Notes under the pieces: generated by a model
What the model was told of the DNA's origin: nothing
What the model saw: only the letters and a program-made list of their open reading frames with translations
Database searches by the model: none
In this document: piece by piece, positions 3,393 to 63,957 of the stretch
Position numbering within the stretch: the stretch's first letter is position 1
Layout of the letters: the number at the start of each line of letters is the position of its first letter
Virus record (IMG/VR): IMGVR_UViG_3300047673_000475
DNA length: 64,000 bases
Reading direction: 5' to 3' (one strand)
From: an uncultured virus (IMG/VR IMGVR_UViG_3300047673_000475)
Lineage: Duplodnaviria; Heunggongvirae; Uroviricota; Caudoviricetes
Position numbers and translations under genes: made by a program

Positions 3393-3427
3393 GACATAAG
3401 GGGAGGCCGAAGCCTCCCTCTATGCCG
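3393..3427. terminator. Hairpin flanked by GACATA/TATGCCG between convergent genes
   Basis: GGGAGGC-CGAA-GCCTCCC followed by TC-TATGCCG. Confidence 0.75.
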
Positions 3428-3435
3428 TTGTTGCT

Positions 3436-4713
3436 TCAGCCTGCGGTATTCCACTTGTTAAAGCCAGTGGGTGCTGTGTGCACGAAGTTGGTCGCGCCTG
3501 CGTTGATCGTCACTGCATCCGTGTTGGCATCCAGTGACACGCCGAGGTAGACCAGTCCCGCAGCACCGCCCGGTACGGCAATCGCCGCCAGCGGCAGACC
3601 CCCGAGACCCGTGGCCGGATTCTGGTTGGCAATCACGTCACCATTCCACTGCTGCGTCTGCGGGTTGTAGAACCAGCCGAGCTTCGCGTTCAGGTCAATC
3701 GCAATCCCTACCACGTCACCCTGTTTCGGAGTGGTGCCGATCGTCTGGGCGTTGCCACCGTTGTAGAAGATCCCCGCGGTTTGACCATCGGCCTCGGTGA
3801 AGATCATCATGCCGTTGGTGTCGGTGCCAAGCTGCTTGTTATTAAGCTGACTGGCGTTACAGATGCCAAAGCCGACTGCCCCAGCCAGCGTGTTGATCGT
3901 GGCTTCCGCGTAGAACTTGCCTGCTTGATGGCCAGCGGTACCACGCGCTGATTGCCAGCCGGTAACTGTGCTGGTCGCCGTCAGGTTAGTGTTGCTCAGC
4001 GTGATGCCTGGCGGAATCAACGCCGCATCCAACTGATCTACCGGGTCGGTCGGTTGCGTGCCACCCGTGAGCTTACCGATGTTAGCATTCACAAATGCTT
4101 CCAGATTGGCGTACTGCCCTTGCAGCGTCTGGAGTTGTTTAGTGAGCGCAATCACCTGCGACTCGGGCGTGTTGGTATTGGTGATGTTAGCCTGCCGGGC
4201 TGCTTCGGCACGGGCATGGTCGGACGCCGAGAGATTGGTCGTCGGCGACACCACCACCGTCTGAATCAACACGCTCGTCAGTCCCACGGTCGTCTTCACC
4301 AAATTGGCGATCTGTTGCTTTAAGAACGTGAGGTCCACGTAATTCGGCATCGCACCCAGGTCCACCGCCATCATCAGGTTGGTGTAGGGGACACCGCCCT
4401 TGGAGGGATAGCTGGCCACAAAGCTCGACGGCACGTAAGCGACCGCGCCAGACGACTGCTGCAGCGTGATGATGCACACCCCGTTGCCGAGGTCCGCCTG
4501 GTACTGGGCCTGCAGGTCACCCGAGGTTTGTTCGCGCGGCTGGTAATACTTGGTGTAAGGGTCGCCACCCGCCGCGATGATGTCCTCAAGCAGTCGGATC
4601 GAAATACAGGTGTACGACGCATTCGCCATCAATGCGTTGTTAAATGGCGAGGTGAGCGTAAAGACTCCGGCCGCCCCCAGCTCCGGAATCAGGTTGGTAG
4701 TGATAACAGCCAT
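3436..4713 (-). CDS. Virion-region protein with C-terminal SPRY/B30.2-like domain
   Basis: C-terminal ITLSNTNLTA..GKFYAEATI..VGFGIC..GDVVGIAIDL..WFY pattern is SPRY-like; preceded by a coiled coil. Confidence 0.7.
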   Translation of the reverse strand: MAVITTNLIPELGAAGVFTLTSPFNNALMANASYTCISIRLLEDIIAAGGDPYTKYYQPREQTSGDLQAQYQADLGNGVCIITLQQSSGAVAYVPSSFVASYPSKGGVPYTNLMMAVDLGAMPNYVDLTFLKQQIANLVKTTVGLTSVLIQTVVVSPTTNLSASDHARAEAARQANITNTNTPESQVIALTKQLQTLQGQYANLEAFVNANIGKLTGGTQPTDPVDQLDAALIPPGITLSNTNLTATSTVTGWQSARGTAGHQAGKFYAEATINTLAGAVGFGICNASQLNNKQLGTDTNGMMIFTEADGQTAGIFYNGGNAQTIGTTPKQGDVVGIAIDLNAKLGWFYNPQTQQWNGDVIANQNPATGLGGLPLAAIAVPGGAAGLVYLGVSLDANTDAVTINAGATNFVHTAPTGFNKWNTAG

Positions 4714-4725
4714 GCGGCGCTCCTA

Positions 4726-6033
4726 TTACGACGAGGCGAACTGCGGGTTCGACTTGGCAGCGACGAGGTAGTCGATCGTCTGGTAGTTGTACACGAGGTA
4801 CAGAATGTTGTTACGGATCAACTTCGTGTAGCCCAGCGGAATGCTGGAATATTGCGTCATCGATTCCGCCACCAGCAGCATCGTGGCCAAGGCCGACAAG
4901 AAGGCTTGCGTGCCCTGGCTCATGCGCGCGAAGTCCGTCGAGGTCGAGCTCACCGAGATGAGATCCGGGAACACGTCCGAGAGCTCGTACAGGTTATCGC
5001 GATTCTGGTCCGAGCCAATCATGGCGATGGCCAGCGACTTGTACGGATGCCCCATCACCGTGCCGTGCGCATTGATATGAGCACTTGGATAACTAGCGAA
5101 CTGGGGGAGCAGCGCGAGCGCATCCGTCAGATTCGTAATCGGAGAGTATATGCCCGCTTGACCCGTGGCGCGATCAGGGATCGCCATTTTGTTCCACCGC
5201 GGCACCAGTACAAACTCGGTGCGCTTGAAGATGTCCGGGAACACCGCGACCCATTCGGCCCGCGTATGCGCGCTGTTCGCCAGAATGTAGGCTTCCAGTG
5301 CATCGCTGATCGAGTCGACATTGTCACCCGCCATGCCGTACAGAATCAGCGTCCAGTCCGTCGAGATGAGCGTACCGGTACCAGCCGGATCATGCCAGTC
5401 GTAAGACATGACGATGATGTCGGTTTCCGGATTGTTCGCCTTGGCTGCCTGGATGTTCAGGAACAGCTGCGGTTTGGTGACCGCGCTGACTTCCGCTTGC
5501 ACTTGCGTGGCGGCTTTGAAAAAGTCGTCGAGCGGCGTGATCGGCGGGACGATGACGAAAGCCGATTCGTCGTATTCGTTCTGGAAGCTCGCATCGGCAA
5601 ACCAGATGCGGATAAACGAACCGGGATTGGCCACGTCGGTCCAGCTGACCCATTCAGGCAACCAGCGCGTCCCGTCGGTGACCATTGCCCCGGAGGCGAA
5701 GGTGTTAGCGGTAGCAGCAAACTGCATGAGGGCGCCTTCGAGCAAGACGTCCGCGTATTGTTGGCCAGCATTGTTAATGGTCTGGTTGTAGAACCAGGCG
5801 CAGATCGTGAGCACGCGCTTGGCGAGGTCTGCATCGACAACTTGGGCTGTCCCGTCGGTTGCGCTCAAGAACGACCAGAGCGTGACGTTCGGCGAACCCG
5901 CTGCGTCGGTGTAGAGGCCGATTTCGCGCGAGTAAGTCCGCGACACCGTGGAGAGTTCCCCGACGGCGTTGACTTGACCCGGCGTGTTGTTTGCGAACAG
6001 GGCGTGGCTCGCAAAACCTTTAAGTGTGTACAT
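4726..6033 (-). CDS. Conserved phiKZ-like virion structural protein
   Basis: 435 aa ORF with good codon bias and GGAG SD; N-terminus MYTLKGF..NNTPGQVNAVGELS resembles jumbo phage structural proteins. Confidence 0.7.
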   Translation of the reverse strand: MYTLKGFASHALFANNTPGQVNAVGELSTVSRTYSREIGLYTDAAGSPNVTLWSFLSATDGTAQVVDADLAKRVLTICAWFYNQTINNAGQQYADVLLEGALMQFAATANTFASGAMVTDGTRWLPEWVSWTDVANPGSFIRIWFADASFQNEYDESAFVIVPPITPLDDFFKAATQVQAEVSAVTKPQLFLNIQAAKANNPETDIIVMSYDWHDPAGTGTLISTDWTLILYGMAGDNVDSISDALEAYILANSAHTRAEWVAVFPDIFKRTEFVLVPRWNKMAIPDRATGQAGIYSPITNLTDALALLPQFASYPSAHINAHGTVMGHPYKSLAIAMIGSDQNRDNLYELSDVFPDLISVSSTSTDFARMSQGTQAFLSALATMLLVAESMTQYSSIPLGYTKLIRNNILYLVYNYQTIDYLVAAKSNPQFASS

Positions 6034-6144
6034 CGAGTAATCTCCAGCTGTTCTTCAACAGGTCGTGGACACCAGGGGATGGACCAAGTGTCTTGAAATC
6101 CATTAGAATAAGACTAAGCATAAAATGAAGCAATAGGGGCTATC

Positions 6145-6606
6145 ATGCTGGCATGGAAAACTTTCACTCTCTTGTGGCCGTTTCTGAAGGAGCTCTTCCT
6201 CGGAAAGAAAACACTGAGCGAGGCACTGAAGACCAACAAAGGACGCGTCTTTCTGATGATAGCCATCATCGGTTCAGTCGTGATGAACTTATGGTTGGTC
6301 CCTAACATTGTGCGGATTTCCACCGACTACGTGGAGCTCAAGCACAAGTATGATGATTTAAAGACGAGTGCCGACGAACATCCGAAGGTCGACACCCCGC
6401 CTGCACCGCCGCCTGTGAAGAAGTACACGTCGATGGTGCAGCCGGAGAAGATTACAGATGCGCTGCCTGCGTCCGCCCGGTCGCCTGCCAGTGCACCTGT
6501 AGTGCCGGAGGCTACGGTACAGCAGTGGTCCAGTTACGACGCCACCGTGGCGCGTTTTAATCAAATCCAGGCGCGCGAGCGGGCTGGCGGTTATAAGAGC
6601 AGGTAG
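6145..6606 (+). CDS. Inner-membrane protein, putative i-spanin
   Basis: Single TM segment (VFLMIAIIGSVVMNLWLV), then helical and Pro-rich region; directly upstream of a lipoprotein. Confidence 0.55.
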   Translation: MLAWKTFTLLWPFLKELFLGKKTLSEALKTNKGRVFLMIAIIGSVVMNLWLVPNIVRISTDYVELKHKYDDLKTSADEHPKVDTPPAPPPVKKYTSMVQPEKITDALPASARSPASAPVVPEATVQQWSSYDATVARFNQIQARERAGGYKSR

Positions 6607-9233: not shown

Positions 9234-9289
9234 CCTCGATGGGCTGCTGCTTATTACCGTCAGTGGTGGCCCATATTGGAGTTTTATCC

Positions 9290-9703
9290 ATGTTACGGTT
9301 AACGGCAAGTCTGAAATCTGCGGCGGCGGGGGTCCTCGAATCGTCATTGCCTGGACGGATGAAGCGACTAATCTTGGTGACGTCGATCGTCGCCCAGGCG
9401 AAGGAAACGCGCAGCTTGGATGTTCAGACGATTCGTAAGCTCAACAATCTCATGGACCTGGCTGGTGAGGAAAAGGCGATGGGTTTGCCCGCGTCGCTTT
9501 CCAAAGCCATCTGGGACGGCAAGACTTCGGTCGATGCCATAGCGTTGCTATCCAAGGGAGGTCCTCTTCCTGAATCCACCATCGGTGACCTCGTACAACA
9601 GATCAAGGCCTGCATCCCAGCGTGGTTGCGTTACGGTCGTGAAGGTGAGGTCGATGCGGATCTGCAGAAGTTGTTCCGTCATAAGTCCGAAGTGTTGGGC
9701 TAG
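9290..9703 (+). CDS. Hypothetical protein
   Basis: ATG with GGAG SD; ORF ends just before a hairpin. Confidence 0.7.
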   Translation: MLRLTASLKSAAAGVLESSLPGRMKRLILVTSIVAQAKETRSLDVQTIRKLNNLMDLAGEEKAMGLPASLSKAIWDGKTSVDAIALLSKGGPLPESTIGDLVQQIKACIPAWLRYGREGEVDADLQKLFRHKSEVLG

Positions 9704-9711: not shown

Positions 9712-9768
9712 CGGTCATATTCCCACTAACCTCCCCAGTAATACGGGCGGGTTAGTGGGTTTATGCCG
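9712..9768. terminator. Long hairpin flanked by GTCATA/TATGCCG between convergent genes
   Basis: CCCACTAACC...GGTTAGTGGG followed by TT-TATGCCG. Confidence 0.75.
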
Positions 9769-9783
9769 GTCTGGCAACAGGGC

Positions 9784-10611
9784 TTACGACTTCAGGTTAT
9801 CGGTAATCTTGTCGACCGATTCGTTGATGCTCGTGTTAAACGCCATCACGCGGAAGTACATCGTCGAGAAGAACTCGAGCTCACAGGCGATCTGGTAGGC
9901 ACCGTCAGAGAGCTCTTGCGCCACTTCGTACGCCGTGCTTTCCATCTTGCCGTCCTTGAGCATCTGGACGATCTTTTCCATGTACTGGGTAGCTTCCTTC
10001 ACCTTCGCATTGAGCTTCTCGCGCGAGACGCTGTTGCTCAGCTTGGAGAGCGTGTCGACTTCACCGAAGACGAGTTCCCAGTCCTTGTTACGGGCGACGG
10101 CGTCACCGTACTTCATGGTCGTGTCGTGGCGACCCGGAGTGAAGCAGGCACCGATGTCTTTCAAGAGAGCGTCGCGTTCTTCTTGCAGGCCCTGGTAGAC
10201 CTTCGCCGAATTTTCCGTCGAGAAGCGCTGATACTCGTTGGTGATCAAGAGCGCCAAATACGTGGTGTACGTATTGAGCAGGTTCATCACCTTGGCCGAA
10301 TGCTCGGCGCCGCGCTTCAGTGCTGCGGCGAGTTCCAGGTAGTTGCTCTTCATGCCCTCGGGGCAGTAGACGGTCAGCGGGCTGATGTCGACGAAGTTGT
10401 GACGCTCCAGCAACTTCATGAAGCTCGCCTGATGGCGCGAAAGCGGCACCGGCTTGTCGGCGCCCGAAAAGCGTTGCGTGAAATCGAGGAAGTGTTTCTT
10501 GATGTCGGGAAACATGCTTTTGAGCATCCCGGTGACATCGAGTGCCTGGACGCTGAAAGTCTCCAGCGCCACAACGTCACGATGGTGACGCAGAGTTTGA
10601 AGCGAGTCCAT
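9784..10611 (-). CDS. Probable head/virion protein (phiKZ gp153-like)
   Basis: AGAAGGA SD, strong codon bias, N-terminal ALE protease motif; divergent from uvsX. Confidence 0.65.
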   Translation of the reverse strand: MDSLQTLRHHRDVVALETFSVQALDVTGMLKSMFPDIKKHFLDFTQRFSGADKPVPLSRHQASFMKLLERHNFVDISPLTVYCPEGMKSNYLELAAALKRGAEHSAKVMNLLNTYTTYLALLITNEYQRFSTENSAKVYQGLQEERDALLKDIGACFTPGRHDTTMKYGDAVARNKDWELVFGEVDTLSKLSNSVSREKLNAKVKEATQYMEKIVQMLKDGKMESTAYEVAQELSDGAYQIACELEFFSTMYFRVMAFNTSINESVDKITDNLKS

Positions 10612-10752
10612 AGGTGTCCTTCTGACTGGGGTAAGTTTGTAAGCCATAACATGCGCGTGGCGGTTATAGCTGTGTGGTATTTTTCACCGGCTACCGCCAT
10701 TATTTGTACGGCTGTGTTTCGTCATTCTCCATTTAAGACCAAAGCAAAGCAC

Positions 10753-12183
10753 ATGGAATTTCTTCAACCTAAAATCAACGCTGCGCCCAACGTGAAACTG
10801 ATGATTAACATCGGTGCACTGATGGACATTCCCACCGGCACTTATATCGAAGGGCGCAAGGGTGAGCACATCCTTAACGGCGGCCTGGCTACGCTCACCG
10901 GCGTCGTGGGGATTGGTAACAACTTCAAGTCCACGGTGATGCACTACCAGATGCTCACCGCGATGTCGCGTTTTCGTCAGGCTTCGGCCTCCACCTACGA
11001 CACAGAAGTCAACATTCAGGAATGGCACTTGATGGAAATGATCCGTCGAGTCGAAGGCCTGCACGAAGAAGACGTCCTGCAAACGGGACGCTGGATCATC
11101 ACCGACAAGACCATGCACACGGGCGACGACTGGTACGCCAAGCAACGGGAGTTCCTGGAAGAGAAAGCCAAGAACATCGGCAAGTGGTCGGTGGATACGC
11201 CATTTTGGAATCGCGATCGCTCGGGTCCGCTGCGCATGATCATCCCCACGTTCAATGAGATCGACTCCTTCACGGAATTCGAAACCTCGGACGTGATGGA
11301 CATGCAGGATAAGAACGATCTGGGTGAGTCGGGCGGTAACACGATTCACATGCGTCAGGGTCTCGCTAAGCTGCGCTTGCTGATGGAAGCGCCGCGTCTG
11401 AACGGTCAGGCGAATAACTACTCGCTGATGACCGCGCACATCGGCAAAGAGTCGACGATGCAAAATGCGGGTCCCGCCGGTTCGGTCCCGATCGTCAAAC
11501 TCAAGCACCTGAAAAACGGCGACAAGATCAAGGGCACGACCGACAAGTTCACCTTCATCACGCACAACTGCTGGCACGCTTATAACGCCTCGCCTTTGAT
11601 GGCGGCGGACAAGAACGGGCCGGAGTATCCGCGCGATTCCGATGACAAGGTCAAGCTCGATACGGACCTGAACACAGTCCAGTTGCGCAACCTGCGCTCC
11701 AAGTCGGGTCCGTCGGGCATGGCGATCACTTTGATCGTCTCACAAACCGAAGGCGTGTTGCCCTCGCTCACCGAGTTCCATCACATCCGCGAACAGGACT
11801 ACTACGGGCTCGTGGGTAGCAAGATCAACTACGCGCTTGCCCTCTATCCAGAGTGCAAACTGGGTCGCACTACCGTGCGTAGCAAGATCGATGAAGACGC
11901 GAAGCTGCGCCGCGCCTTAAACATCACTTCCGAGATGTGCCAGATGTCGTACATGTGGCATCACCTGGATGATCTGATGTGCACGCCTGAAGAGCTCTAC
12001 ACGGATCTCAAGGCCAAGGGTTACGACTGGGACCTGCTGCTCAATACGCGCGGCTGGTGGACCACGGACGAAGATCATCCGCTGCCTTTCCTCTCGACCA
12101 TGGATCTCTTGCGCATGCGCAAGGGTCTGTACCATCCGTACTGGTATCCGGTCGGCGTGGATGCCCTGAAGGCAGCAGCGTAA
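10753..12183 (+). CDS. uvsX: UvsX/RecA-like recombinase (phiKZ gp152-like)
   Basis: NIGALMDIPTG, P-loop variant GIGNNFKST, YDTE, IDSFT Walker B-like motif; true start at MEFLQPK. Confidence 0.88.
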   Translation: MEFLQPKINAAPNVKLMINIGALMDIPTGTYIEGRKGEHILNGGLATLTGVVGIGNNFKSTVMHYQMLTAMSRFRQASASTYDTEVNIQEWHLMEMIRRVEGLHEEDVLQTGRWIITDKTMHTGDDWYAKQREFLEEKAKNIGKWSVDTPFWNRDRSGPLRMIIPTFNEIDSFTEFETSDVMDMQDKNDLGESGGNTIHMRQGLAKLRLLMEAPRLNGQANNYSLMTAHIGKESTMQNAGPAGSVPIVKLKHLKNGDKIKGTTDKFTFITHNCWHAYNASPLMAADKNGPEYPRDSDDKVKLDTDLNTVQLRNLRSKSGPSGMAITLIVSQTEGVLPSLTEFHHIREQDYYGLVGSKINYALALYPECKLGRTTVRSKIDEDAKLRRALNITSEMCQMSYMWHHLDDLMCTPEELYTDLKAKGYDWDLLLNTRGWWTTDEDHPLPFLSTMDLLRMRKGLYHPYWYPVGVDALKAAA

Positions 12184-15694: not shown

Positions 15695-16423
15695 ATGGAT
15701 CAATCAGCGGTTGCCGTCGTATACGCGGAGCTCGATGCTCTGCTCGATACACGGCTCGGGACCCTGGCACGCATGGGCAACCATGTAGCCGAAGCTGTAT
15801 TGTTGTCCGAGAGTTATCATAAACGCGACTGCGACGTGTTCGCAGGCGTGGATATGCAGGTCTACCGTGACCTGTACTCTAAGCGCGACGTAGAGACGTT
15901 AAAGTTCTCACGTGCGACTAAAGCGGTGTTCCTCCTGAATTCGCTAGTGCGTTATCTGAAGGAACAGGCGACTGTACGCCCGTATCACGAGAGTGCAAAA
16001 GTCGTCATTAATACGTTCCCTTACGTGCTGAGCGTCGAAGAAGAAGCTGAGTTGGGCAAGGTCATTGCGACCTGGATTTCAGGGCTCGCACCGGTTGAGC
16101 TCGTACATATGCGCCCACAAGAGCTTTCTCCTCTGTACGTTAAACAGCAGTCGTATTCGAGCCTGTTGATGTACGAGTACGATCCTTGGATGAGTCTGCA
16201 TTTTGGACCCACATCGAAGCAAGCAACGCCTATCCAAGATGTCTCAATATTCGCGCCAGCGATATTCTTCGCGGATAAGCCAAGCGACAAAGAGTTGCAG
16301 CAAGTCATTAAGCGCGCAGCCCATCCACTGCAAGCTGTAGAGATCCTGGGAAGGTCGCTCGTCGGCCTGAACTTGATCGATGTCGAATACTTCAGCATAA
16401 TTCGACCTTCCGAACCGGCATAA
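15695..16423 (+). CDS. Conserved phiKZ-like hypothetical protein (possibly HAD-like fold)
   Basis: YAELDALLDTRLGTL and INTFPYVL motifs; AGGA SD. Confidence 0.7.
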   Translation: MDQSAVAVVYAELDALLDTRLGTLARMGNHVAEAVLLSESYHKRDCDVFAGVDMQVYRDLYSKRDVETLKFSRATKAVFLLNSLVRYLKEQATVRPYHESAKVVINTFPYVLSVEEEAELGKVIATWISGLAPVELVHMRPQELSPLYVKQQSYSSLLMYEYDPWMSLHFGPTSKQATPIQDVSIFAPAIFFADKPSDKELQQVIKRAAHPLQAVEILGRSLVGLNLIDVEYFSIIRPSEPA

Positions 16424-16473
16424 ACGCCCCGCACCCCTCGACCCCACTTCTGGAGCGGTCGAGGTGGGTGCGG
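16416..16473. terminator. Long hairpin with TATGCCG tail on the minus strand
   Basis: CGGCATA followed by CCGCACCC-CTCGACC...GGTCGAG-GGGTGCGG; between convergent genes. Confidence 0.65.
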
Positions 16474-16503
16474 AGCACAGTCACGGTTTGGAGCGGGTTT
16501 CCG

Positions 16504-16950
16504 TTAGTCTGCGCCTTCAACGGGCGCAAACTGAGCGTGGAACGAATCGAAGTCTTGCTGAACCGGCGTAGTGGCAACTTCCCCTTCCACCAGGACGGGG
16601 TCGGGTACATCGCTTCCGAGCTTCGGAACCTCCCTTGGAACAGGTTCAGCGGCTTGGAAGTTATGCCCGCCGCTGCCCATCTGGCGCAGGATCTCAGCAA
16701 TGTTGGCGGCCATGCCTTCCTGGTTCATGACCTGCGCTTCTTCCACGCGCAGCTTCATCTTACCGAGCGCCTGGCGGTCCATGCCGTCGAGCACTTGGGC
16801 GATGGTGCCCACGATCTTGGGGTCGGCAAGGTTCTGCAGATCCTTAGCGAGTACGCCGACGATCTGCTTACGCATTCCTTGGGTATAGTCGAGTACGGCC
16901 TCGTCTGCGTCGACGGGACCGACTACTTCTGTGACTTGATCTGCAGACAT
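16504..16950 (-). CDS. Hypothetical protein
   Basis: AGGA SD; 148 aa acidic protein. Confidence 0.75.
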   Translation of the reverse strand: MSADQVTEVVGPVDADEAVLDYTQGMRKQIVGVLAKDLQNLADPKIVGTIAQVLDGMDRQALGKMKLRVEEAQVMNQEGMAANIAEILRQMGSGGHNFQAAEPVPREVPKLGSDVPDPVLVEGEVATTPVQQDFDSFHAQFAPVEGAD

Positions 16951-16968: not shown

Positions 16969-17006
16969 TTTCAGCGATATATTACTAACTAGAGATAAGT
17001 AACAAG
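16969..17006 (+). promoter_or_regulatory. Putative early (virion RNAP) promoter
   Basis: TTTCAGCGATATATTAC contains the phiKZ early consensus TATATTAC (16978-16985). Confidence 0.7.
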
Positions 17007-18938: not shown

Positions 18939-18981
18939 GGGGAGGCTTCGGCCTCCCCTATGCCCCTTCTTCTTTTTTTTT
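18939..18981 (+). terminator. Hairpin plus TATGCC plus T-run
   Basis: GGGGAGGC-TTCG-GCCTCCCC-TATGCC followed by poly-T. Confidence 0.8.
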
Positions 18982-18996
18982 GTTTCGAGGACCAAC

Positions 18997-20523: not shown

Positions 20524-20555
20524 GCGGCGCGGCGCATTTCAACGTCCGTTTTAAC

Positions 20556-20592
20556 GTCATAAGGGCCAGGGTTTCCCCTGGCCTCTATGCCG
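20556..20592. terminator. Hairpin flanked by GTCATA/TATGCCG between convergent genes
   Basis: GGCCAGG(G)-TTTC-(C)CCTGGCC followed by TC-TATGCCG. Confidence 0.75.
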
Positions 20593-22708: not shown

Positions 22709-22728
22709 GGCTGCTCCTACGAAATAAA

Positions 22729-22750
22729 GAGGGGAGCCGAAGCTCCCCTC
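22729..22750 (-). terminator. Hairpin after tape measure gene
   Basis: GAGGGGAGC-CGAA-GCTCCCCTC, followed by TTTATTT on the minus strand. Confidence 0.7.
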
Positions 22751-29134: not shown

Positions 29135-30763
29135 ATGCCGCAAAAATCCGACGTGCCATTTAACGTGAGTATCCTTGAACTCACGGAGAAAAAGCTCGTG
29201 GGGGTGAAGCCTGTTACGAAACAGGACATCTTCGATGGCGCGACCCACAACTTCGATGAAGGCGGACTCTTCTCGGTGAGCATCTTCGGCAAAGTCGGGG
29301 ATGAGCGCCGGAGTCAGCGCTTTTCATTTGTCGACATCAAGGCCCCGGTGTTCCATCCGGTGATCTATCGGGCACTCGCCCAGCTCAAGCGTCTCTATGC
29401 CGCGATCATGGCGGGCACCGAGTACGCCGTGTGGAATCCCGAAACCAAAGACTTTGAGCGCAGCAATTCGATTACCGGCCGTACCGGCTACGCGTTCTTT
29501 CTGGAATACTGGAAGCTGATCGAATTCGGTGACACCAAGAGTGTGACACGGGAAATGAATGTGTCGCTCTTGAAGAAGTTCCAGAGCGTGGCGCTGACGA
29601 GCAAAGTGATCGTGATGCCTGCGGGGATGCGGGACGTGGAGCTTGACGGTGGTCGGGTGCAGATGGATGAGATCAACACCTTTTACCGCAAACTGCTGGC
29701 GATCTCCAACACCATCTCCGAAGCGTCGGTCAAGACCGCGCCGGAAGTCATCAACACCGCACGCTACAACTTGCAGCTCACCTTTAACCAGCTGTACGAC
29801 ATGCTGGAAAACATGGTGCAGGGCAAGAAGAAGCTGCTGATGGGTAAGTGGGCGTCACGGCGGATTCAGGACGGCACGCGAAACGTGATTACCGCGATGG
29901 ATACCTCCAGTCCCTATCTGGGAGCACCCGATGCGGTGGGCTTTAATAACACCGTGATCGGCCTGTACCAGATGCTGAAAGCGGCACGCCCGATTGCGAT
30001 GTACAACATTCGCAATGGCTTTCTCTCCAAGGTGTTCTTTGAAGTAGGTCGGCCCGTTAAGCTGATTGACAAGAAGACGCTGCGCCCGGTTGAAGTCACG
30101 CTTAAGACGCAAAGCTACGATCGCTGGATGACCAACGAAGGCATCGAGAAGGTGATCACGTCCTTTGGTGACGAAGACCTGCGCCATAAACCGTTGGAGA
30201 TTGAAGGGTATTACCTGGGTCTGATTTACAAGGGCCCGGACGGGACCTACAAGATCTTCCAGGACATCGGCGATGTGCCGATTGATCGCAGTCGCAAGGA
30301 TGTGACGCCACTCACCTTCTGTGAGTTGCTGTATCTGTCGACCTTCCAGGCGATTAATGGCTTGCCGCTCTTTGTGACGCGCTACCCGGTGACAGGGGTA
30401 GGCTCGATCTATCCGTCGCTCGCCTATGTGAAGACGACGATTAAGGCTGAGGTCCGCAAGGAGCTCGACGAGCAATGGCATCTGCGTCTGGATGCGCCCG
30501 TGGCGTATCAGTTCCCGATTGCAGGCGGGGCCTTTATCAACTCGCTGGTGCCGCACTCGGCCAAGCTCGGCAAACTGGGCGCTGACTTTGACGGCGATAC
30601 TGCTTCGGGTAACGTCACGTATTCGGACGAATCCATCGCGGAAGTCAAGGCACACCTGAGTAAGAAGCGCGCCTACGTGGGTACCGACGGCTCCTTCATG
30701 TCCAGTATCGAGGTCTCGACCGTGTCCTTGGTGTTCCACAATCTGACAGGTTACGATTCATGA
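29135..30763 (+). CDS. Virion RNA polymerase beta-prime subunit (phiKZ gp180-like)
   Basis: GLFSVSIFG, TRNVIT, TRYP and catalytic GADFDGD motifs. Confidence 0.95.
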   Translation: MPQKSDVPFNVSILELTEKKLVGVKPVTKQDIFDGATHNFDEGGLFSVSIFGKVGDERRSQRFSFVDIKAPVFHPVIYRALAQLKRLYAAIMAGTEYAVWNPETKDFERSNSITGRTGYAFFLEYWKLIEFGDTKSVTREMNVSLLKKFQSVALTSKVIVMPAGMRDVELDGGRVQMDEINTFYRKLLAISNTISEASVKTAPEVINTARYNLQLTFNQLYDMLENMVQGKKKLLMGKWASRRIQDGTRNVITAMDTSSPYLGAPDAVGFNNTVIGLYQMLKAARPIAMYNIRNGFLSKVFFEVGRPVKLIDKKTLRPVEVTLKTQSYDRWMTNEGIEKVITSFGDEDLRHKPLEIEGYYLGLIYKGPDGTYKIFQDIGDVPIDRSRKDVTPLTFCELLYLSTFQAINGLPLFVTRYPVTGVGSIYPSLAYVKTTIKAEVRKELDEQWHLRLDAPVAYQFPIAGGAFINSLVPHSAKLGKLGADFDGDTASGNVTYSDESIAEVKAHLSKKRAYVGTDGSFMSSIEVSTVSLVFHNLTGYDS

Positions 30764-33700
30764 TTTTCTACAACAACTTTTTTCGACGCTTTGGGGTGCG
30801 CACGGCTTCGCAGTTGACGAACCCGCCCATGCCCAAGCTCGATTTGCTGGAGTTGCCGCGCGAGTCGATCTTTCACTACGTGAGTGAAAGCGCGGTGGAC
30901 ATCGGGCCGCGCTCGGATGAATTCCTCTTCCGGCATGTGGCGCGTCCCATCCCGATCATGCACCAGATCGAGTTGCTCTCGGATAAGGGCATGCCGCGAC
31001 GCGTCGCGGTGCCGGTGGAAACGGAGATTCGCAAGTACCATCAGCATCATCGGCGCTTTCGTCGTCAGATCAACCTGAGCGCCGCGCTGCGGGATGTGAA
31101 TGTCCCGTTCGTGATGAACTACGGCTTCCTGGCAGGGCTCTACCGTTATCAGCGCTCAATGTTCGCGGAGTACAACCGCTGGTACAATATTGCGGCGACC
31201 GTCTGGAAGCGTATTGGTGATCTGGCCAAAGACTCGACCCGCCATCAGTTCATCGAAATCCGGCTGCCCAAGATTCTGCCCGGTTTGACGGATCTGCGCA
31301 TTGCTTCGGAGTCGTTGATTGAGGGGGACGTGCTGAGCGTCGCCACCGAAGGCATCAAGCTGGCGCTCGAGTCGGTCGATCAGGAGTATCTGGACCTGGT
31401 CCAAGCCTCGCCCCATTACGTCGATAGCATGGCGCTGGAAGCAATGAACCAGCGCACGCTCAAGGTGTTCCATACGCCCGAAGCATTGATGCTGCTCGAG
31501 CTGTGGAAGTGGGCAGGTGATGCGCGTCATAGCTCGCTGATTGCCAACGTCAATGATGAGCATCTGGATCGCGTGAATCTGATCTTCACGGAATCGGGTC
31601 GCTGGTTCGTGGTGAACCTGGGTGTGATCAATCGTTGGCGCGTGGCCACTGAGGAAGAGCTCGCGGCGAATCCGCAAGCGAATCAGAAGGGGCTCTCACC
31701 AGTGCAGATGCAGCGTCGCTTGCTGCGTATGTCGATGTCGCTCTTTCAAGTACGCACCGACGTGGGTCCGGAAGCCGAAGACGCCGCCCAAGACGAAGAG
31801 TCGATCCAGGCAGCGGACGCGCAAGATGCGAGTGCTGATGGAGTACCGGAAGCGCAACACTACGATCCCGATGAGCAGTTCGATGCGGGTAAGGGCGACG
31901 AGGAAGACGAGAGTCTCTTGCCGACCTTTAAGCAAACGGGGAGTCTGCCCAAGGTCGATCCGATTACGGGCGAAGCGATTCTGAAGCCGACCGCGGTCAA
32001 GACCACCACGGTCAAGACCACGCCGACCGATGAATTCACCCCCACGGAGAAGGCCGAGGACTTTGTCTTTGACCCGACTGAGGACGCGCAGATTGAAAAG
32101 GATCTGCAAGAGCTCGATAAGTTCAGTCGTCAAGCGGTCGCAGTGGGCTCGGGTGAGATTCCGCACCCGGCGGAAGTGGTCGAGCTGAACGACGTGCCGC
32201 AACCGGAAGACGGTGTGATTGCCTTGCTCAATCGCCTGGCGGACGATGGCATGGTGAGTGCAGCCGAGTATCGCCGCTTCACGCAACTGGCCCAATCCCC
32301 CAAGAACCTGCCCGCTCCCAAGGGTGAAGGGAATCTGCACGACTTCTCGCAAGTCCAGCCGCACGAAACCAAGATGGATAAGTCCCCTGCCATCAAGGAC
32401 ATTCCGACGGTGCTGGATAAGACGATGTTGAAATCGTCGTTGCTCGAATTCGATCAGCGCTACATCGAGACGCTGTTGGAAAAGGACGTGGCAGGTATGG
32501 TGCTGGCCTTGCAAAATGCTGGCATCTGCGTGACGTCCTACGAGCGTGAAGAGGTGGATGACGTGATGGGTTCGTACGTGATGTACCACGTACGGATTGT
32601 GCCGGTCCAGGGTACGGCTTCGACGCTGCACTTTAAGCTGCCGCTGTTGCAAGACGACGGCACCTACATGGCCAACGGCACGCGCTATCGCATCCGCAAG
32701 CAAAAGGGTGACATGCCGATCCGTAAGATCGCCCCGGACCGCGTGGCACTGACCTCCTACTACGGTAAGGTGTTTGTCTCGCGCAGCGAGAAGCGCGTGA
32801 ATGATCGCGCGCAATGGCTGCGTAATGCGATCATGGCCATGGGGTTGGATAACGAAAACACCACGGTGGTGAATCTGCATCCGGGTGACGTGTTCGACAA
32901 CCTCTTTGAAGCGCCGCGTCTGTATTCTTCGATGGCGATGGGTTTCCGCGGATTCACGGTCGATTCGGCGCACTTCCCGAAGAAGCTCAACTTCCTCTTT
33001 GATCACTCGAAGCGCGACAAGCTCTACGGGCCGGACGTGGTCAAGGCGCTCGAAGTGGACGGTCGTTTGGTGTGTGGTCAGGCCGAAGGGGGTGACTACA
33101 TCGTCATGGATCGTGAGGGGGACTTCTTCCTTGCGACGCTTAAAGACGGTGTCAGTCTTGTCACGGGGGATGCAGTCCCGCCTTTGGAAGAGTTGCTTGA
33201 TCTGGAGTCGAAGAAGGCGCCGGTCGAGTTTGCTGAACTGAAGGTGCTGGGTCGCACGATTCCGTTGGCCGTGGTGCTGGGCTACCAACTGGGCTTGGAA
33301 AAGCTCATGCGGGCGCTGAAAGTCACAGCGCGTCGAGTGAATGCCGGTCAGCGCCTGAACCTGCAAGATAACGAGTACGCGATTGCATTCTCGGACGAGA
33401 CGTTGATCTTCCCGCGCGATAACACCTTTGCGGCGATGATCCTCGGGGGCTTTAACGAGTTCCACCGTCAGATCCGTAACTACAGCGTGTTCGAGTTTGA
33501 TCGGCGCGGCGTCTATCTGAACATCCTCGAAGGCAACGGGCGTTCGGAGCGGTACCTGCGTGAGATCGATTTGATGTACCAGATGTTTATCGATCCGATC
33601 ACACGGGAAATCTTGCAGGGCATGAAAGAGCCGCTGACCTTCCAGGGTCTGCTGGTGCGCGCGGTGGAGATGCTGCTCTCGGATACTCACCCGGATGAGC

Positions 33701-38622: not shown

Positions 38623-38651
38623 CCCCAGGGGAAACCCTGGGGTTTATGCCG
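38623..38651 (+). terminator. Hairpin plus TATGCCG
   Basis: CCCCAGGG-GAAA-CCCTGGGG-TT-TATGCCG. Confidence 0.75.
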
Positions 38652-38671
38652 CTAAACCGCATGATTCAAAG

Positions 38672-38700
38672 AAAACTCAACGATATATCACTAACCAGAG
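38672..38700 (+). promoter_or_regulatory. Putative early promoter
   Basis: AAAACTCAACGATATATCACTAACCAGAG, near-identical to the 16969 copy. Confidence 0.65.
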
Positions 38701-42937: not shown

Positions 42938-42996
42938 CGGCATAACGACATAAAAGCCAGAAAAGACCCGCAAAGGTCTTTTCTGGCTCTATGCCG
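42938..42996. terminator. Bidirectional hairpin flanked by CGGCATA, GACATA and TATGCCG
   Basis: AGCCAGAAAAGACC-loop-GGTCTTTTCTGGCT-C-TATGCCG between convergent genes. Confidence 0.8.
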
Positions 42997-51705: not shown

Positions 51706-51723
51706 CGCTTTGGCGTCCTCAGC

Positions 51724-51762
51724 GTCATAAGGCCCAGGGGGAAACCCCTGGGCTCTATGCTG
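51724..51762. terminator. Hairpin flanked by GTCATA/TATGCTG between convergent genes
   Basis: GCCCAGGGG-GAAA-CCCCTGGGC-TC-TATGCTG. Confidence 0.75.
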
Positions 51763-54055: not shown

Positions 54056-54874
54056 TCATTCGGTTAATGGAGAAAAGAGCCAACCCTTGTAGGGGGTAGC
54101 GGCTCCCTTTCGTGCCTTATGATTGCGATACCCGACGATGTCGAGCTTTAGCAATCGGCAAGCGTGTTTGACTGAACAAAAAAGTGTGCGTTCACCTGTT
54201 TCGATATTCTCTCCGACAATATCGCAGACCCTGCCTAGCGTGTACTCCTCGCTATCATCCGGAGCAAGGAATTCAGGCCATGGTTTTCCGTCATCGAACT
54301 TGTACACCCGGCCTAGGTGTTTGATTCGACCGGCTGCCACAGACCAGAGGTGGATGAACATGACCGACTGGGTCACACCGGCTTTTCGAGCACACTCGCT
54401 TACCGAGTAGTAGCTCTCCATTTCGCCAGTCTCTACGTCTTTGGACAAAACCTTGAGCTGGTTGCTAAACAACCCGTGCTCTCGGGCATGCTTCATGTTT
54501 TCTTCACCAGTGACCCACTCGAGGTTATCCCAAACGTTGTTCAGCTTGTCACCGTCGATATGGTTCACTTGCAATTCATCGAAGCTGATCTCTTTGTGTC
54601 GTTCAGGTTTATCCACGAACAGCAAAGCTACCAGCCGATGGACTAAGTAGTTTTTCCAAATCCCATCGTCACAGAGCGTGGTAATTACGTACCCTCTCCC
54701 GGCAATCCGCGTGAAGTGTTTCTCGCCTGTAATGAGATTGATGAGCTCGCCACGCTTGTTAATCACCACATGACTTTGACCAACTGGGACTTGGTAATAC
54801 CCTTTGTAGTAGGGATGCTCGCCCGTAAACGGGGGAACATAGCTGTCTACAACATTGTCTATTGTTTCGTTCAT
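54056..54874 (-). CDS. Free-standing HNH homing endonuclease with NUMOD1-like C-terminal DNA-binding repeats
   Basis: [45 protein letters not shown]; visibly AT-richer than neighbours. Confidence 0.92.
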
Positions 54875-54915: not shown

Positions 54916-54943
54916 CGGCATAGAGGGAGGCCGAAGCCTCCCC
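54916..54943 (-). terminator. Hairpin plus TATGCCG on the minus strand
   Basis: Minus strand reads GGGAGGC-TTCG-GCCTCCC-TC-TATGCCG. Confidence 0.75.
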
Positions 54944-54951
54944 CATACGCG

Positions 54952-56677: not shown

Positions 56678-56706
56678 CGGCATAAAGGCGAGGCCGAAGC
56701 CCCGCC
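56678..56706 (-). terminator. Hairpin plus TATGCCG on the minus strand
   Basis: Minus strand reads GGCGGGGC-TTCG-GCCTCGCC-TT-TATGCCG. Confidence 0.75.
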
Positions 56707-56734: not shown

Positions 56735-57811
56735 TTACTTACGTGCGCGCACGCGTTGGCGAGGCGCCAACGTAACGAGACGAACACGGAAGCTTTCGAG
56801 GGCAGCGTCACCATTGGCCACGGGGACCGTCGGGTCTTCGCCGTTAGCCTGGTTCTGCGGGACTTCACCCTCCTTCTTGGGTGCGGGGACCTTGTCGTCA
56901 CCCGCGCCGATGGCAGCTTGCGCTTCAGGGCTCAAAGCACCCGGATCGTTCGGCAAGGCCGAGACCGGTTGCACGACCGGTTGACCCGTGTCGGTATTGC
57001 CTTCTTCCAGCGCAGGCGCCACCCCGCTGTCTTCACCAGCCGGAGCTTCGGCAGCGGCAGCGGCTTCTTCAGCGGCGATCTTCGCGATCTCGACCACACG
57101 CGAGGTGATCGACGGATCTTGCGGGCAGGGATTGGTTGCCGGGTCACCTGCGACGCCTTCACCACCTTGTTGGGCCGTCACATCACCGGCCGTACCCACA
57201 CCGTCCGCGCCGTCGTTGCCACCGTTACCGAGATCGGTTTCCGGATTCACCACGCCTTCGACGAATTCTTCGAACGAACGATAGAACTTGCCACCCAGCC
57301 GCTTGGTCAGGGCTTCCATCGCTTCGGACAGATATTCGACTTCTTCCTTGGGTGCGCCACCCAGACCGTTGACCGAGGGCAAAGTGCCGTCGACCACCAC
57401 CACGAATTCCTTCGGGCGGCTTTCGCTGTCTTCGTTCATCAGCGCATCGGCCACATCGACCACGTCAGCGTCGGTGATGTCAGCTTTCGCCACACCGTAC
57501 ACTTGCAGGTCAGCACCTTCGGCACCAGGGGCACCGATTTCGCCGTTGACTTCGCTCACCGGCTGGACCGACTGCTGTTGGTTGTTGCTGATGGATTCGA
57601 CGATCTTTTGCATGACCGTCACGTCTTGGGCTTGGCTTTCCGTGGCCACTACACCCTCACCTTGGCTCGGCTCTTTGGCGTAGGCCACATCCAGCGCCTT
57701 GGTGAAGATCTCGGACAACGGACCGCTCATCACGATGGTCGGCTCGTTAGGACGCGAGGTCATCTCGACCGTCTCGCCTTCCAGCGCCATTCGGAACATG
57801 CTCTTGCTCAT
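56735..57811 (-). CDS. Acidic head-associated protein with several AxE protease motifs
   Basis: AAGGA SD at MSKSMFRMALE; GPLSEIFTKALDVAYAK, VATESQ, PALEE, AALES. Confidence 0.75.
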   Translation of the reverse strand: MSKSMFRMALEGETVEMTSRPNEPTIVMSGPLSEIFTKALDVAYAKEPSQGEGVVATESQAQDVTVMQKIVESISNNQQQSVQPVSEVNGEIGAPGAEGADLQVYGVAKADITDADVVDVADALMNEDSESRPKEFVVVVDGTLPSVNGLGGAPKEEVEYLSEAMEALTKRLGGKFYRSFEEFVEGVVNPETDLGNGGNDGADGVGTAGDVTAQQGGEGVAGDPATNPCPQDPSITSRVVEIAKIAAEEAAAAAEAPAGEDSGVAPALEEGNTDTGQPVVQPVSALPNDPGALSPEAQAAIGAGDDKVPAPKKEGEVPQNQANGEDPTVPVANGDAALESFRVRLVTLAPRQRVRARK

Positions 57812-58400
57812 GGGTTCTTTCCTTAGGGAGTAGGAACGGAATTGGAGATTCACAGTATTGCTATCTACAGGATAAAAGATCCTGCTGCGTGCGGTGCATA
57901 ACAAGATAGGGGAACACGATAAAAACCCGCCCGCCGCGCCCCTAAGACGGGTTTGCAACGCTGGGCGGGTTTTCGACCATGCGGTGTCATTCATCAACAA
58001 TACAATCCAATACCTATCCAAAACTATCTCTGTCGCTGCGCTCGTGCTTTGCTTCCTCTCCCTAGCGCGCCAGCGCTCACTCTCTAGGTTGACAAACCCC
58101 GGTCTAAACTTTTTAAAAAGGGGAAGGGGGACCAAGCCCCTTCCCCGATAAGTTAATATCGGGTTTAGAAGCTAAGTACTTGATTTATAAGGATAAAGTA
58201 AAAAAATACTGTGTAGGAACTTAGATATGTGTCAAGGAGCAGAGGCGACGCGGAGCGAAGCGGAGGAAGAGAATTAAGCGTAGAGAGGGGCGGAGCCCCT
58301 CTCTTTATTATTCCCTAGAAAGGAATACTCCCTGGAGTCATACTCTGTAAGAATAGAATATTTAATTACAAGACCAGACTGAGCCGGGCACAGTAGCCTG
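57812..58400. other. Large structured non-coding region between divergent late and early genes
   Basis: Several hairpins and palindromes around an AT-rich core; no credible ORF. Confidence 0.6.
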
Positions 58401-58473
58401 GCTCTTATGCCGCTGAGTCGTGATCCTAGAAAGATTCAACCATATATTCTCCCGGCGAGCACAAGCAAGTAAA
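58381..58473 (+). promoter_or_regulatory. Hairpin-TATGCCG plus early promoter module, copy 1
   Basis: TATGCCG..GAGTCGTG..AAAGATTCAACCATATATTCTCCCGGC..AGCAAGTAA. Confidence 0.7.
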
Positions 58474-59110: not shown

Positions 59111-59204
59111 GGCCTGGGGTAACCCAGGCCTTTATGCCGTAGAGTCGTGGATTGAAAAAGATTTCAACCATATATTCTCCGGCTGAGTTAGAGCAAGTAA
59201 CAAG
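59111..59204 (+). promoter_or_regulatory. Hairpin-TATGCCG plus early promoter module, copy 2
   Basis: TATGCCG..GAGTCGTG..AAAGATTTCAACCATATATTCTCCGGC..AGAGCAAGTAACAAG. Confidence 0.7.
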
Positions 59205-60690: not shown

Positions 60691-60692
60691 AC

Positions 60693-60731
60693 GACATAGC
60701 GGCCTGGGGGCAACCCCAGGCCAGTGTGCCG
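60693..60731 (+). terminator. Hairpin flanked by GACATA/TGTGCCG
   Basis: GGCCTGGGG-GCAA-CCCCAGGCC-AG-TGTGCCG. Confidence 0.7.
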
Positions 60732-62371: not shown

Positions 62372-62398
62372 AGAGGGGCTTCGGCTCCTCTTTTTTTT
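62372..62398 (+). terminator. Canonical intrinsic terminator
   Basis: AGAGGGGC-TTCG-GCTCCTCT followed by a T-run. Confidence 0.85.
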
Positions 62399-62608: not shown

Positions 62609-62703
62609 TGGGATGCTTTCTTGGTATGTCGGGATACCTAAATTACATGAGAGGGGACGAGAAGCCCTTCTTATTTTCCCAACCTACCCGCGTGAGAACT
62701 AGC

Positions 62704-62976
62704 ATGCCTAACGCGCGCTTTACCGAAGACGAGCTTCAGGCGATCCTGATTAAGCTCAAAGTTTCCTTGCATGGCAAACTGCGGGAATGCAAGGCTCTGA
62801 CCTCTAACATCGGGCAACTCGTGCGCCTCGCTCAGATCGAGCAGACGCTCAAACACCCCGAAGCGTTGGGTGGCGACACGGTCCACAAACTGAACACCTA
62901 CCAGACAATGCTCAACGAGGTGAAGGCTTACATCAAGGCTATCGAAGACGGTAGCGCTACCCCACTTGCTGCGTAA
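62704..62976 (+). CDS. Hypothetical protein
   Basis: GAG SD; helical 90 aa. Confidence 0.7.
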   Translation: MPNARFTEDELQAILIKLKVSLHGKLRECKALTSNIGQLVRLAQIEQTLKHPEALGGDTVHKLNTYQTMLNEVKAYIKAIEDGSATPLAA

Positions 62977-62984
62977 GGTCGACG

Positions 62985-63251
62985 ATGTACTCTATTTCCT
63001 CGACCCGCGAGAATCAACCGCCTGCTTTTTGGACGGAAGAGCGACAGCGTTGCAGTGACATGTACGTGGCAGCAAAACGAGAACGTAAGCGTGTTGAGCG
63101 TGAGCACACCAAAATGTTGCTTGACATGAATTCCGCTTACGGCCTGGCTACGGCCTACTTTCGCTCGGGGGTTGTGCTGCGAAGGATCAATCTCTTCTCG
63201 CTCGCCATCGAACAGTTCGATCGCGCGTACCAGTTGCTAGTACTCTTTTAA
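62985..63251 (+). CDS. Hypothetical protein containing an NSAYG motif
   Basis: TAAGGT SD. Confidence 0.7.
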   Translation: MYSISSTRENQPPAFWTEERQRCSDMYVAAKRERKRVEREHTKMLLDMNSAYGLATAYFRSGVVLRRINLFSLAIEQFDRAYQLLVLF

Positions 63252-63309
63252 TAAACACCAGGGGCGACGCCAGGCTTGCCCAAGTACCACACAGACCACT
63301 GAGATTCAC

Positions 63310-63909
63310 ATGAACCAGAAAGCTCTTTCCTTCTTCTTCGCCAACTACGACTTCAAGAATTTCGAAGCGACAAACGCAGATGAAGGGTTTATCGAAAACC
63401 ATATCAACTCGCTGTATACGCCCGACGAGCAACCCGTGATGCGGCTCGTGCGTCGCACGGTGCGCGAACTGAGTGCTCACCCGGCGCTCGCCACCGACTT
63501 CGTGTTCGATGCGGGCTCCCACCAGGGCATGTACCGTCGCCTGGAAGGCTATCGCGTGAATGTCGACGAGCAACTCGTCATGAAGATCACGATCGAGATG
63601 GGCGAAGATGCCGGAACCTACGTCGCGGCCAAGGTCATCTACCCGAAGCTCGAGAAAGCGGCGAAGCGCGAATTCGGCAAGCGCTGGCAGAAAGCGGCCG
63701 GAGTCGACTTCGACTATGCGGCGGCCTTCAGCCAGATGCGCAATCTCGTGAGCCAGCTCTCCAACAGCTGCGTCTTCAAGGTCGATGAGAACGGCGTGGG
63801 CTTCACGCTCACCATCATGCCGCTCACCAAGGGCCTGGTAGACTTCGCTAAGGGGCAGGAAGCCGCCGCGGGAACCTTCGTGAAGATCCAGTTGCGCAAC
63901 GCTGCATAA
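63310..63909 (+). CDS. Hypothetical protein
   Basis: 199 aa, strong codon bias. Confidence 0.85.
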   Translation: MNQKALSFFFANYDFKNFEATNADEGFIENHINSLYTPDEQPVMRLVRRTVRELSAHPALATDFVFDAGSHQGMYRRLEGYRVNVDEQLVMKITIEMGEDAGTYVAAKVIYPKLEKAAKREFGKRWQKAAGVDFDYAAAFSQMRNLVSQLSNSCVFKVDENGVGFTLTIMPLTKGLVDFAKGQEAAAGTFVKIQLRNAA

Positions 63910-63919
63910 GCCGCTACAG

Positions 63920-63957
63920 CGGCATACGGGCAGCCCTAGGGCTGCCCGCTATGACCG
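63920..63957. terminator. Hairpin flanked by CGGCATA/TATGACCG
   Basis: CGGGCAGCC-CTAG-GGCTGCCCG-C-TATGACCG. Confidence 0.7.

Follow-up and report, generated by a model that had tools for sequence, protein, structure and literature searches.

Gene-end hairpins with a TATG-type tail in an uncultured jumbo phage resemble the mapped terminators of phiKZ and 201phi2-1

A family of GC-rich hairpins followed by a short TATG-type tail was analyzed in a 64,000-nucleotide (nt) stretch of DNA (hereafter the window) from the uncultured virus IMGVR_UViG_3300047673_000475, which forms part of a 313,315-bp single-contig genome with a GC content of 56%. These sites are very probably transcription terminators of the kind mapped in phages phiKZ and 201phi2-1. 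Going by its sequence, the element appears to be an additional, high-GC example of an already known chimallivirus terminator and not a new one, since RNA 3′ ends have been mapped to this motif in both of those phages. An earlier inspection of the letters of the window (the sequence-only reading) had listed 14 such hairpins and taken them for a termination or 3′-end signal in a phiKZ-type phage; a GC-rich hairpin with a TATG-type tail was found at all 14 positions, and the proposed role is supported by the mapped ends of the two relatives. This high-GC case lacks the U-rich character because of which the phiKZ sites could be taken for intrinsic terminators of the standard type.

Enrichment, form and conservation of the tail

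Gene calls were made for this analysis, and the 209 intergenic hairpins include four tail-less ones from a half-wrong, hand-corrected gene call. Across the 313,315 bp, TATG[ACT]C follows 63 of the 209 intergenic strand-specific hairpins and none of 688 coding hairpins, a zero that reflects background and not avoidance of the element, because TATG is avoided generally in genes and hairpin plus tail occurs there twice where 1.5 occurrences are expected. With strong hairpins (dG of -12 kcal/mol or lower) and the pattern TATG[ACT][CT], a tail was found at 79/180 intergenic as against 2/304 coding hairpins. Shuffling the 25 nt downstream of the intergenic hairpins gave 10.3 ± 2.2 tails with a maximum of 19 (1000 shuffles), and TATGCCG is present in 47 copies in 210 intergenic regions as against 2.6 ± 1.7 (200 shuffles), so that the enrichment over shuffled intergenic DNA, which had been suggested as a check, lies far above chance. 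A stable structure was found upstream of 49 of 57 TATGCCG copies, a figure for which no background was computed. In the part of the literature record searched for TATGCCG, the only occurrence was a polymerase chain reaction primer in the announcement of Klebsiella phage Miami (PMC7844079).

The consensus of the tail is stem-YY-TATG-(C>A>T)-C-G-(T/C), with C or T preceding TATG in 73/79 tails, G at tail position 7 in 56/79 and T next in 43/79. The tail had been described as a fixed TATGCCG, which does not hold, as this 7-mer makes up only 35/79 tails, followed by TATGACG (12), TATGCCC (7) and others. The tail starts 0–2 nt past the last G-C pair in 56/79 cases, and loops of 4 nt are found in 64/79 tailed hairpins. 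Most tails do lack poly-U as had been noted: only 2/79 have five consecutive T within their first 9 nt, and there is a delayed run of at least five T at nt 10–25 in 13/79, for example at window position 18939.

Tails are present on 25/27 strand-hairpins at convergent junctions, 40/93 on the sense side and 12/49 on the antisense side of tandem junctions (p = 0.043 between these two), and 2/11 at divergent junctions. The sequence-only reading was therefore right in placing tails on both strands at most convergent junctions. A same-strand stop codon lies within 100 nt of 60/79 tails and within 300 nt of three more, with 16/79 having none within 300 nt. That the tail follows the direction of transcription is accordingly upheld as a tendency but not as a rule, the exceptions being the sites at 58381 and 60693 and the 16 tails just mentioned. 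It should also be noted that at three tandem plus-strand junctions (genome positions 158646, 168833 and 225697, window orientation) a TATGCCG tail is found on the antisense strand only, and for two of these hairpins the sense side is U-rich over a stretch. Such hairpins may block transcription of the antisense strand, or each strand may be used by a different polymerase.

The letters of the tail are conserved and the sequence of the stem is not. Among 50 genes with a hairpin and tail and an orthologue in Burkholderia phage FLC9, a hairpin was present in FLC9 for 42, of which 41 kept the tail, and in 40 of these 41 the stem differs. Some stems fit the stem consensus of the phiKZ-type motif, CCYCCCC...GGGRRGG (GGGAGG/CCTCCC), and many do not. 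The consensus elemental pause consists of G-10, Y-1 and G+1. With the end set at TATGNY, G+1 is found in 44/60 tails here, and G at -10 in 18/60 here versus 40/47 in phiKZ and 42/48 in 201phi2-1, where it is a base of the stem. The elemental pause is mentioned in PMC11685472, the available text of which does not give the consensus.

To place the element among other phages, 14 hand-chosen relatives were compared, ten of them from 313 phage records. With the uncorrected gene calls, TATG[ACT]Y follows 60/108 gene-end hairpins in this genome, and it is also found in FLC9 (58/106), FLC4-3B (77/128), FLC8 (40/89), RAY (55/85), Goslar (19/43), 201phi2-1 (48/99), phiKZ (47/102) and OBP (30/74). It is rare in SPN3US (1/65), BUCTxx100 (5/86), Aphrodite1 (6/70), GXNNE2 (9/76), phiR1-37 (1/70) and PBS1 (1/19), in which TTATTT-like tails dominate. 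The tail of OBP is a TATGTTTG-like variant, and the gp123 of this phage clusters with those of the tail-less phages.

Comparison with the mapped RNA ends of phiKZ and 201phi2-1

In the portions of the two transcriptome reports that were available, 61 terminators are given for phiKZ with the consensus BCCYCCCCHWWDGGGRRGGBYTTATKYYGT, that is, a hairpin followed by TTAT, and are classed as intrinsic (Putzeys et al., 2024; PMC10914365), and in 201phi2-1 a motif A is found at 59/132 mapped ends (Poppeliers et al., 2024; PMC11512511). Eight terminators of 201phi2-1, among them 179552 and 229201 with TTTATGCCG, work in a reporter in uninfected P. chlororaphis (PMC11512511).

The published end coordinates were placed on both genomes, covering all 149 starts and 129/133 ends of phiKZ, with two ends per genome skipped. 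Among ends with a hairpin, a TATG[ACT]Y tail is present at 41/91 in 201phi2-1 and 36/93 in phiKZ, rising to 73/91 and 67/93, respectively, for TAT[AGT]HY; TATGCCG is the commonest tail 7-mer in 201phi2-1 (12/38). The ends fall at tail positions 1, 3, 5 and 6, with the commonest and nearly the farthest being TATGYY|G (19/41 in 201phi2-1 and 12/36 in phiKZ), 8 nt past the stem. A distance of about 8 nt from stem to end is standard for terminators. TATGYY|G is suggested to be the release point, with the shorter ends arising from trimming. Read depth across the mapped sites falls by a median of 97%. The drop at TATG ends exceeds that at the others (median 0.974 vs 0.915, p = 7e-6), a difference that depends on where the end is placed and loses significance when U-rich hairpins are the comparison (p = 0.14). 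Correlations of the mapped ends with tail or stem (0.10 and 0.25) were not significant, and the small number of sites that have a long spacer end close to the stem.

The element of the present genome shares with the phiKZ motif a GC hairpin, a spacer of about 2 nt and TAT-K-YY-G-T, an intergenic location near a stop codon (60/79 tails), the bidirectional form at convergent genes (25/27) and a chimallivirus setting; a hairpin stands directly before (Y)TAT-K-YY-G-T at 79/180 strong intergenic hairpins. It differs in the share of TAT tails with G at position 4 (88%, compared with 52% in phiKZ), in a C-richer tail (mean of 3.35 T in 8 nt vs 4.26) and in far more varied stems. With motif A of 201phi2-1 it shares the same tail, often followed by an early-promoter box. 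As to the setting, homologues of chimallin (E 3.9e-33), gp55, gp68 and gp123 are encoded outside the window and two phiKZ-type RNA polymerase subunits within it, and the genome is thus identified from its gene content as that of a nucleus-forming jumbo phage (chimallivirus) carrying both virion and non-virion polymerases.

How the tail might be read

In the scheme favored here, a GC-rich RNA hairpin would form just past the stop codon, its sequence being free and its structure kept, and the polymerase would stall in the tail and release an RNA whose longest form stops at TATGYY|G, some 8 nt beyond the stem, after which exonucleases would trim some ends back toward the stem. A tail on each side would let one hairpin act in both directions. 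The tail would stand in for the U-tract, acting through its letters more than through weakness of the hybrid, and would serve mainly middle and late transcripts of the non-virion RNA polymerase (nvRNAP). The present data establish the motif, where it lies, that it is conserved and to which family the phage belongs, and work on relatives has placed RNA 3′ ends at the motif and found termination in a reporter. That the sites terminate transcription in this phage, that the enzyme pauses at Y|G, that ends are trimmed and which polymerase does the reading is what we infer. A stop read as sequence by the phage polymerase is plausible because the tail is kept while stems change, the hybrid is strong and the tail is biased toward late transcripts in the mapped phages. 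If so, two-barrel polymerases would be shown to terminate by a mechanism of a new kind, one that would also provide polymerase-specific terminators for synthetic biology.

The purified phiKZ nvRNAP and a TATG-bound structure exist, which makes sequence reading directly testable. If it is true, nvRNAP would stop at CCTATGCCG and AATATGCCG and not at TACG/TTTG variants, while the host RNA polymerase would track U content; the tail series bearing on sequence versus U content is TTTATGCCG, CCTATGCCG, AATATGCCG, TTTTTGCCG, TTTACGCCG, TTTATGCCA and U8. Termination by the two phage polymerases is not addressed in the literature searched, and the string 'terminat' is absent from the main text, as far as available, of PMC12809450, PMC7618050 and PMC13282480.

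Several points weigh against the favored scheme. The 201phi2-1 reporter indicates that the host polymerase stops at TTTATG tails without phage proteins (PMC11512511, available in part), so that phage-specific reading is not required at such tails. According to the available part of PMC10612078, the virion polymerase makes the early transcripts, and its non-virion counterpart makes the late and probably the middle ones as well. The late bias itself speaks for the scheme: with phiKZ and 201phi2-1 pooled and counting late-promoter ends not shared with early promoters, the first hairpin end is tailed in 25/55 cases after a late and 3/22 after an early promoter (Fisher p = 0.009), and in 3/14 early-only versus 43/83 middle/late-only cases (p = 0.044); this split, however, is post hoc, was prompted by the 201phi2-1 table and uses promoter classes assigned by motif. 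It is not significant in either mapped phage taken singly (p = 0.66 and 0.056) and finds no support in the present genome, in which 4/9 early-like boxes have a TATG tail after them. The tail is present on only 60/108 gene-end hairpins, and the RNA ends were mapped in phiKZ and 201phi2-1, the element here being known as a sequence. Ends at +6 or beyond occur at 23/45 sites with a 5′ CATA versus 9/32 without (p = 0.06), and mapped ends avoid A because poly(A) tailing in the mapping method shifts them. The mapped ends by themselves do not separate termination from trimming.

The best-surviving alternative is that these are ordinary, somewhat weak intrinsic terminators that act on any multisubunit polymerase, the shared tail being due to common descent or copying, and this is a real possibility, although not the one we would expect to hold. 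The 8-nt distance from stem to end is the usual one for such terminators, and the hairpins share with them a stable GC stem (dG of -12 kcal/mol or lower by selection) and tetraloops of the UUCG and GAAA types. Both published sets call the sites ARNold-predicted intrinsic terminators (PMC10914365, PMC11512511), which is therefore the published reading in the parts available, and the reporter activity in uninfected P. chlororaphis is that of the host polymerase (PMC11512511). The six reporter terminators that match or beat lambda T0 are all TTTAT-tailed, and the other two start TTATATG and AATATG; the latter two, which are not reported to match lambda T0, nevertheless show read drops of 98.6% and 99.96% in infection, and two cases give no more than a hint. 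During infection AATATG tails still give drops of 96–99.96% at several sites (1457, 50665, 222993 and 289834). The phage polymerase has no rudder (PMC7618050, as far as available), and a weaker signal might suffice for it. The U-tract and weak hybrid of a canonical terminator are nevertheless missing: 66/72 tails contain only 2–4 T among their first 8 nt, TT occupies the two positions next to the stem in only 21/60, and for the 8-nt hybrid ending in TATGNY the stacking energy has a median of -8.8 kcal/mol (n = 60), compared with -3.6 for U-rich tails (n = 4) and -1.5 for U8. The strong hybrid and the scarcity of TT make a plain U-tract mechanism a poor description here, and simple copying of a terminator is disfavored because the stems were replaced while the tails stayed.

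A sequence-read stop by the phage polymerase could take a more specific form, which is put forward tentatively and is itself rather unlikely, in which nvRNAP would recapture the non-template TATG of the tail in the late-promoter pocket of GP123, add two to three more nucleotides and stall at Y|G, whereupon the hairpin would free the RNA. One base-specific pocket would, on this doubtful proposal, read TATG as a start and, past a hairpin, as a stop, with early transcripts of the virion polymerase ending at U-richer hairpins; if true, one four-letter promoter word would mark both start and stop and replace the U-tract for a multisubunit polymerase. At T7 class II terminators and at sigma70-dependent pauses on promoter-like elements, too, the polymerase pauses or stops on reading a short fixed sequence, the former needing no hairpin and belonging to a single-subunit enzyme. 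The open bubble of a transcribing polymerase is such that an end at TATGYY|G would put TATG at -6 to -3, within it. The following statements on the promoter and pocket are those of the available parts of PMC4666361 and PMC12809450. The non-virion polymerase requires TATG at its start (PMC4666361), and GP123 is a core beta-like and not a sigma-like subunit with base-specific binding of non-template TATG (PMC12809450), so that promoter and tail share the same four non-template letters, with the pocket subunit encoded here. The GP123 homologue of this genome keeps 8/14 pocket residues, with H185Y and Y406F being conservative changes, and the preference of the tail for late transcripts in phiKZ and 201phi2-1 also fits. 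Residue 406 is Y or F in nine tail-bearing phages and H or W in four tail-less chimalliviruses, and OBP, which lies within a well-supported tail-less clade, has both F406 and the tail. This link, though, involves three changes on the tree, was matched by 54/500 shuffles and is not significant, and the tail-less BUCTxx100 shares most invariant pocket positions. The pocket is also described as incomplete in the transcribing complex, and the initiation register is -3 to +1 (PMC12809450). Any substitution in TATG cripples the promoter (PMC4666361), and yet many of the efficient ends of phiKZ and 201phi2-1 have TATT or TATA in their tails. The arrest of the host polymerase at TTTATG tails without any phage protein (PMC11512511, in part) is a further difficulty. 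No paper proposing or testing such a role of the pocket was found in the mostly open-access literature that was searched.

The use of TATG within genes bears on the same question. TATG is among the most avoided 4-mers in genes on both strands (0.53 of expectation) here and in FLC9, FLC4-3B, SPN3US and BUCTxx100, and is not avoided in the genes of phiR1-37 and PBS1; this probably reflects avoidance of stray late promoters. The tail-less SPN3US and BUCTxx100 still reach only 0.60 and 0.72 of expectation, which counts against the pocket, as does the finding that hairpin plus tail is not avoided in genes beyond background. An apparent tail-specific avoidance in genes (40 vs 98 expected, 60 shuffle rounds) is explained by the general avoidance of TATG on both strands. 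The depletion is 0.52 of expectation on either strand, and on the sense strand TATGHY (0.42) is slightly more depleted than other TATG (0.58). The sense-strand avoidance that would characterize a terminator independent of a hairpin was thus not found, the depletion being general and on both strands.

Under another alternative, which is quite improbable, the hairpin and UAUGCCG would form an RNA signal bound by a protein, of phage or host origin, that cleaves the mRNA, protects it or carries it out of the phage nucleus, and the mapped ends would be processing ends. Ends spread over +1, +3, +5 and +6, partly tracking the extent of pairing, would suit this, as would the enrichment of the tail on transcripts thought to be made inside the phage nucleus (PMC10612078, in part). 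Much of the conserved GYYG, however, lies at or past the mapped 3′ end, and the final G is therefore absent from most mature RNAs. The median drop of 97% in read depth and the termination-like behavior of the reporters without phage proteins (available part of PMC11512511) also speak for termination, and the antisense-facing tails at 12/49 tandem junctions suit the arrest of antisense transcription.

The idea, also raised in the sequence-only reading, that CAUA and UAUG extend the stem and that a phage protein binds it is very unlikely and finds no support as a general design. Tails on both sides, able to pair, are found at 19/61 distinct sites, and Poppeliers et al. regard motif A/B as an elongated stem (PMC11512511, in part), but a 5′ CATA is present at 1/42 one-sided sites and only 6/19 two-sided sites are in register. 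Unlike their motif B, taken as a stem extension, the 5′ CATA here acts as the tail of the opposite strand, since 12/19 two-sided sites are convergent junctions.

That the TATG of the tail acts as the late promoter of the next gene, in a coupled terminate-and-restart element, is hardly credible, as no start was mapped within -3 to +4 of the tail G at any of 77 tails in phiKZ and 201phi2-1, the nearest lying at +5, on a second TATG. The late promoter consensus is indeed TATG (PMC4666361, in part), and a few sites, P020 of 201phi2-1 and P049 of phiKZ, combine a hairpin with another TATG shortly after it at which transcription starts, with one such double present here. TATG starts in 201phi2-1 are, in contrast to the tails, never followed by C (0/22), and the tails at convergent junctions (25/27) point into the opposing gene. 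Restart in the relatives comes mostly from separate promoters, 21–58 nt beyond the terminator. In the present genome 5/10 early-promoter-like boxes lie 26–42 nt after a tail. About ten such boxes (…ATATAT[TC][AC]…), all on the plus strand in window orientation, were found in the genome, with those at window positions 16975, 38679, 58438 and 59166 resembling the TATATTAC promoters of phiKZ.

Sites in the window and the source genome

The bidirectional form is present at six of the seven listed convergent junctions of the window. A hairpin at 3401–3418 (element 3392–3427) lies between convergent baseplate and virion genes, with TATGCCG (3421–3427) on the plus and TATGTCC on the minus strand. A long, bulged hairpin at about 9722–9759 (element 9712–9768) carries TATGCCG (9762–9768) on the plus and TATGACC on the minus strand and sits in the convergent junction of 9239–9703(+) and 9784–10647(-). 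A convergent junction also holds the hairpin at 20555–20592 (plus TATGCCG, minus TATGACG). The hairpin at 42956–42987 (element 42938–42996) has TATGCCG on the plus strand and, in tandem, TATGTCG and then TATGCCG on the minus strand; that at 51723–51762, between a virion gene and the terminase gene, has TATGCTG on the plus and TATGACG on the minus strand; and that at 63920–63956 has TATGACC on the plus and TATGCCG on the minus strand. The hairpin at 60692–60731, with TGTGCCG on the plus and TATGTCG on the minus strand, is likewise tailed on both sides and lies in a tandem (+/+) junction.

One-sided sites with TATGCCG are found on the plus strand at 38623–38651, after the head maturation protease gene, and at 59111–59139, and on the minus strand at 54916–54944 and 56678–56706. 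A long, bulged hairpin at 16416–16476 carries TATGCCG (16422–16416) on the minus strand after gene 16504–16875(-) and no tail on the plus strand. The plus-strand hairpin at 18939–18982 has TATGCCC followed by a delayed U-tract. A further minus-strand hairpin at 22720–22750, absent from the sequence-only reading, follows the gene of a 2106-amino-acid tail protein and carries TTTATTTCG, a TATT variant as in phiKZ. As a contrast case, a canonical plus-strand hairpin with a U8 tract is present at 62373–62398, in agreement with the plain terminator claimed at 62372. About 34 nt after the tail at 38623–38651 lies an AT-rich early-promoter-like box, AACGATATATCAC (38670–38695, plus strand), which may serve as a promoter.

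The plus-strand TATGCCG hairpin at 58381–58412 lies in a divergent intergenic region with no plus-strand gene upstream, and its tail closes a non-coding region of about 600 bp (57790–58370) that has 74% identity in FLC9. Hairpins at 58120 and 58283 in this region have stems that are changed in FLC9 and still pair, and two complementary GC-rich tracts, CTCTGTCGCTGCGCTC... and ...GAGGCGACGCGGAGCGAAGCGGAG, are present. Judged by these features the region could be a replication site, a packaging site or a structured RNA; Rfam gave no match at gathering score anywhere in the window, this region included.

The closest annotated relative of the genome is Burkholderia phage FLC9, with 77% identity across 69% of a 20-kb query and a median protein identity of 62% over 296 best hits. 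Genes of the window encode a baseplate protein, tail sheath, terminase, head protease and the two phiKZ-type RNA polymerase subunits (29135–35298, plus strand), of which 29135–30763 is the PHIKZ180 homologue and 30760–35298 the second. A free-standing HNH endonuclease gene (54056–54874, minus strand) is located directly upstream of the terminase large subunit gene.

An open reading frame (ORF) of 806 amino acids (9763–12183, plus strand) begins at the ATG inside a terminator tail and is a genuine gene only from about residue 326 onward. This real part is kept in all 12 nucleus-forming relatives that gave a match (94% in FLC9 and 40% in phiKZ), and the N-terminal part is an antisense shadow of gene 9784–10647(-). 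The ORF 10684–11577(-) is also a shadow ORF. From position 63458 on, the window passes from the contig end to the contig start with an overlap of about 127 bases, and the assembly is therefore circular or terminally redundant.

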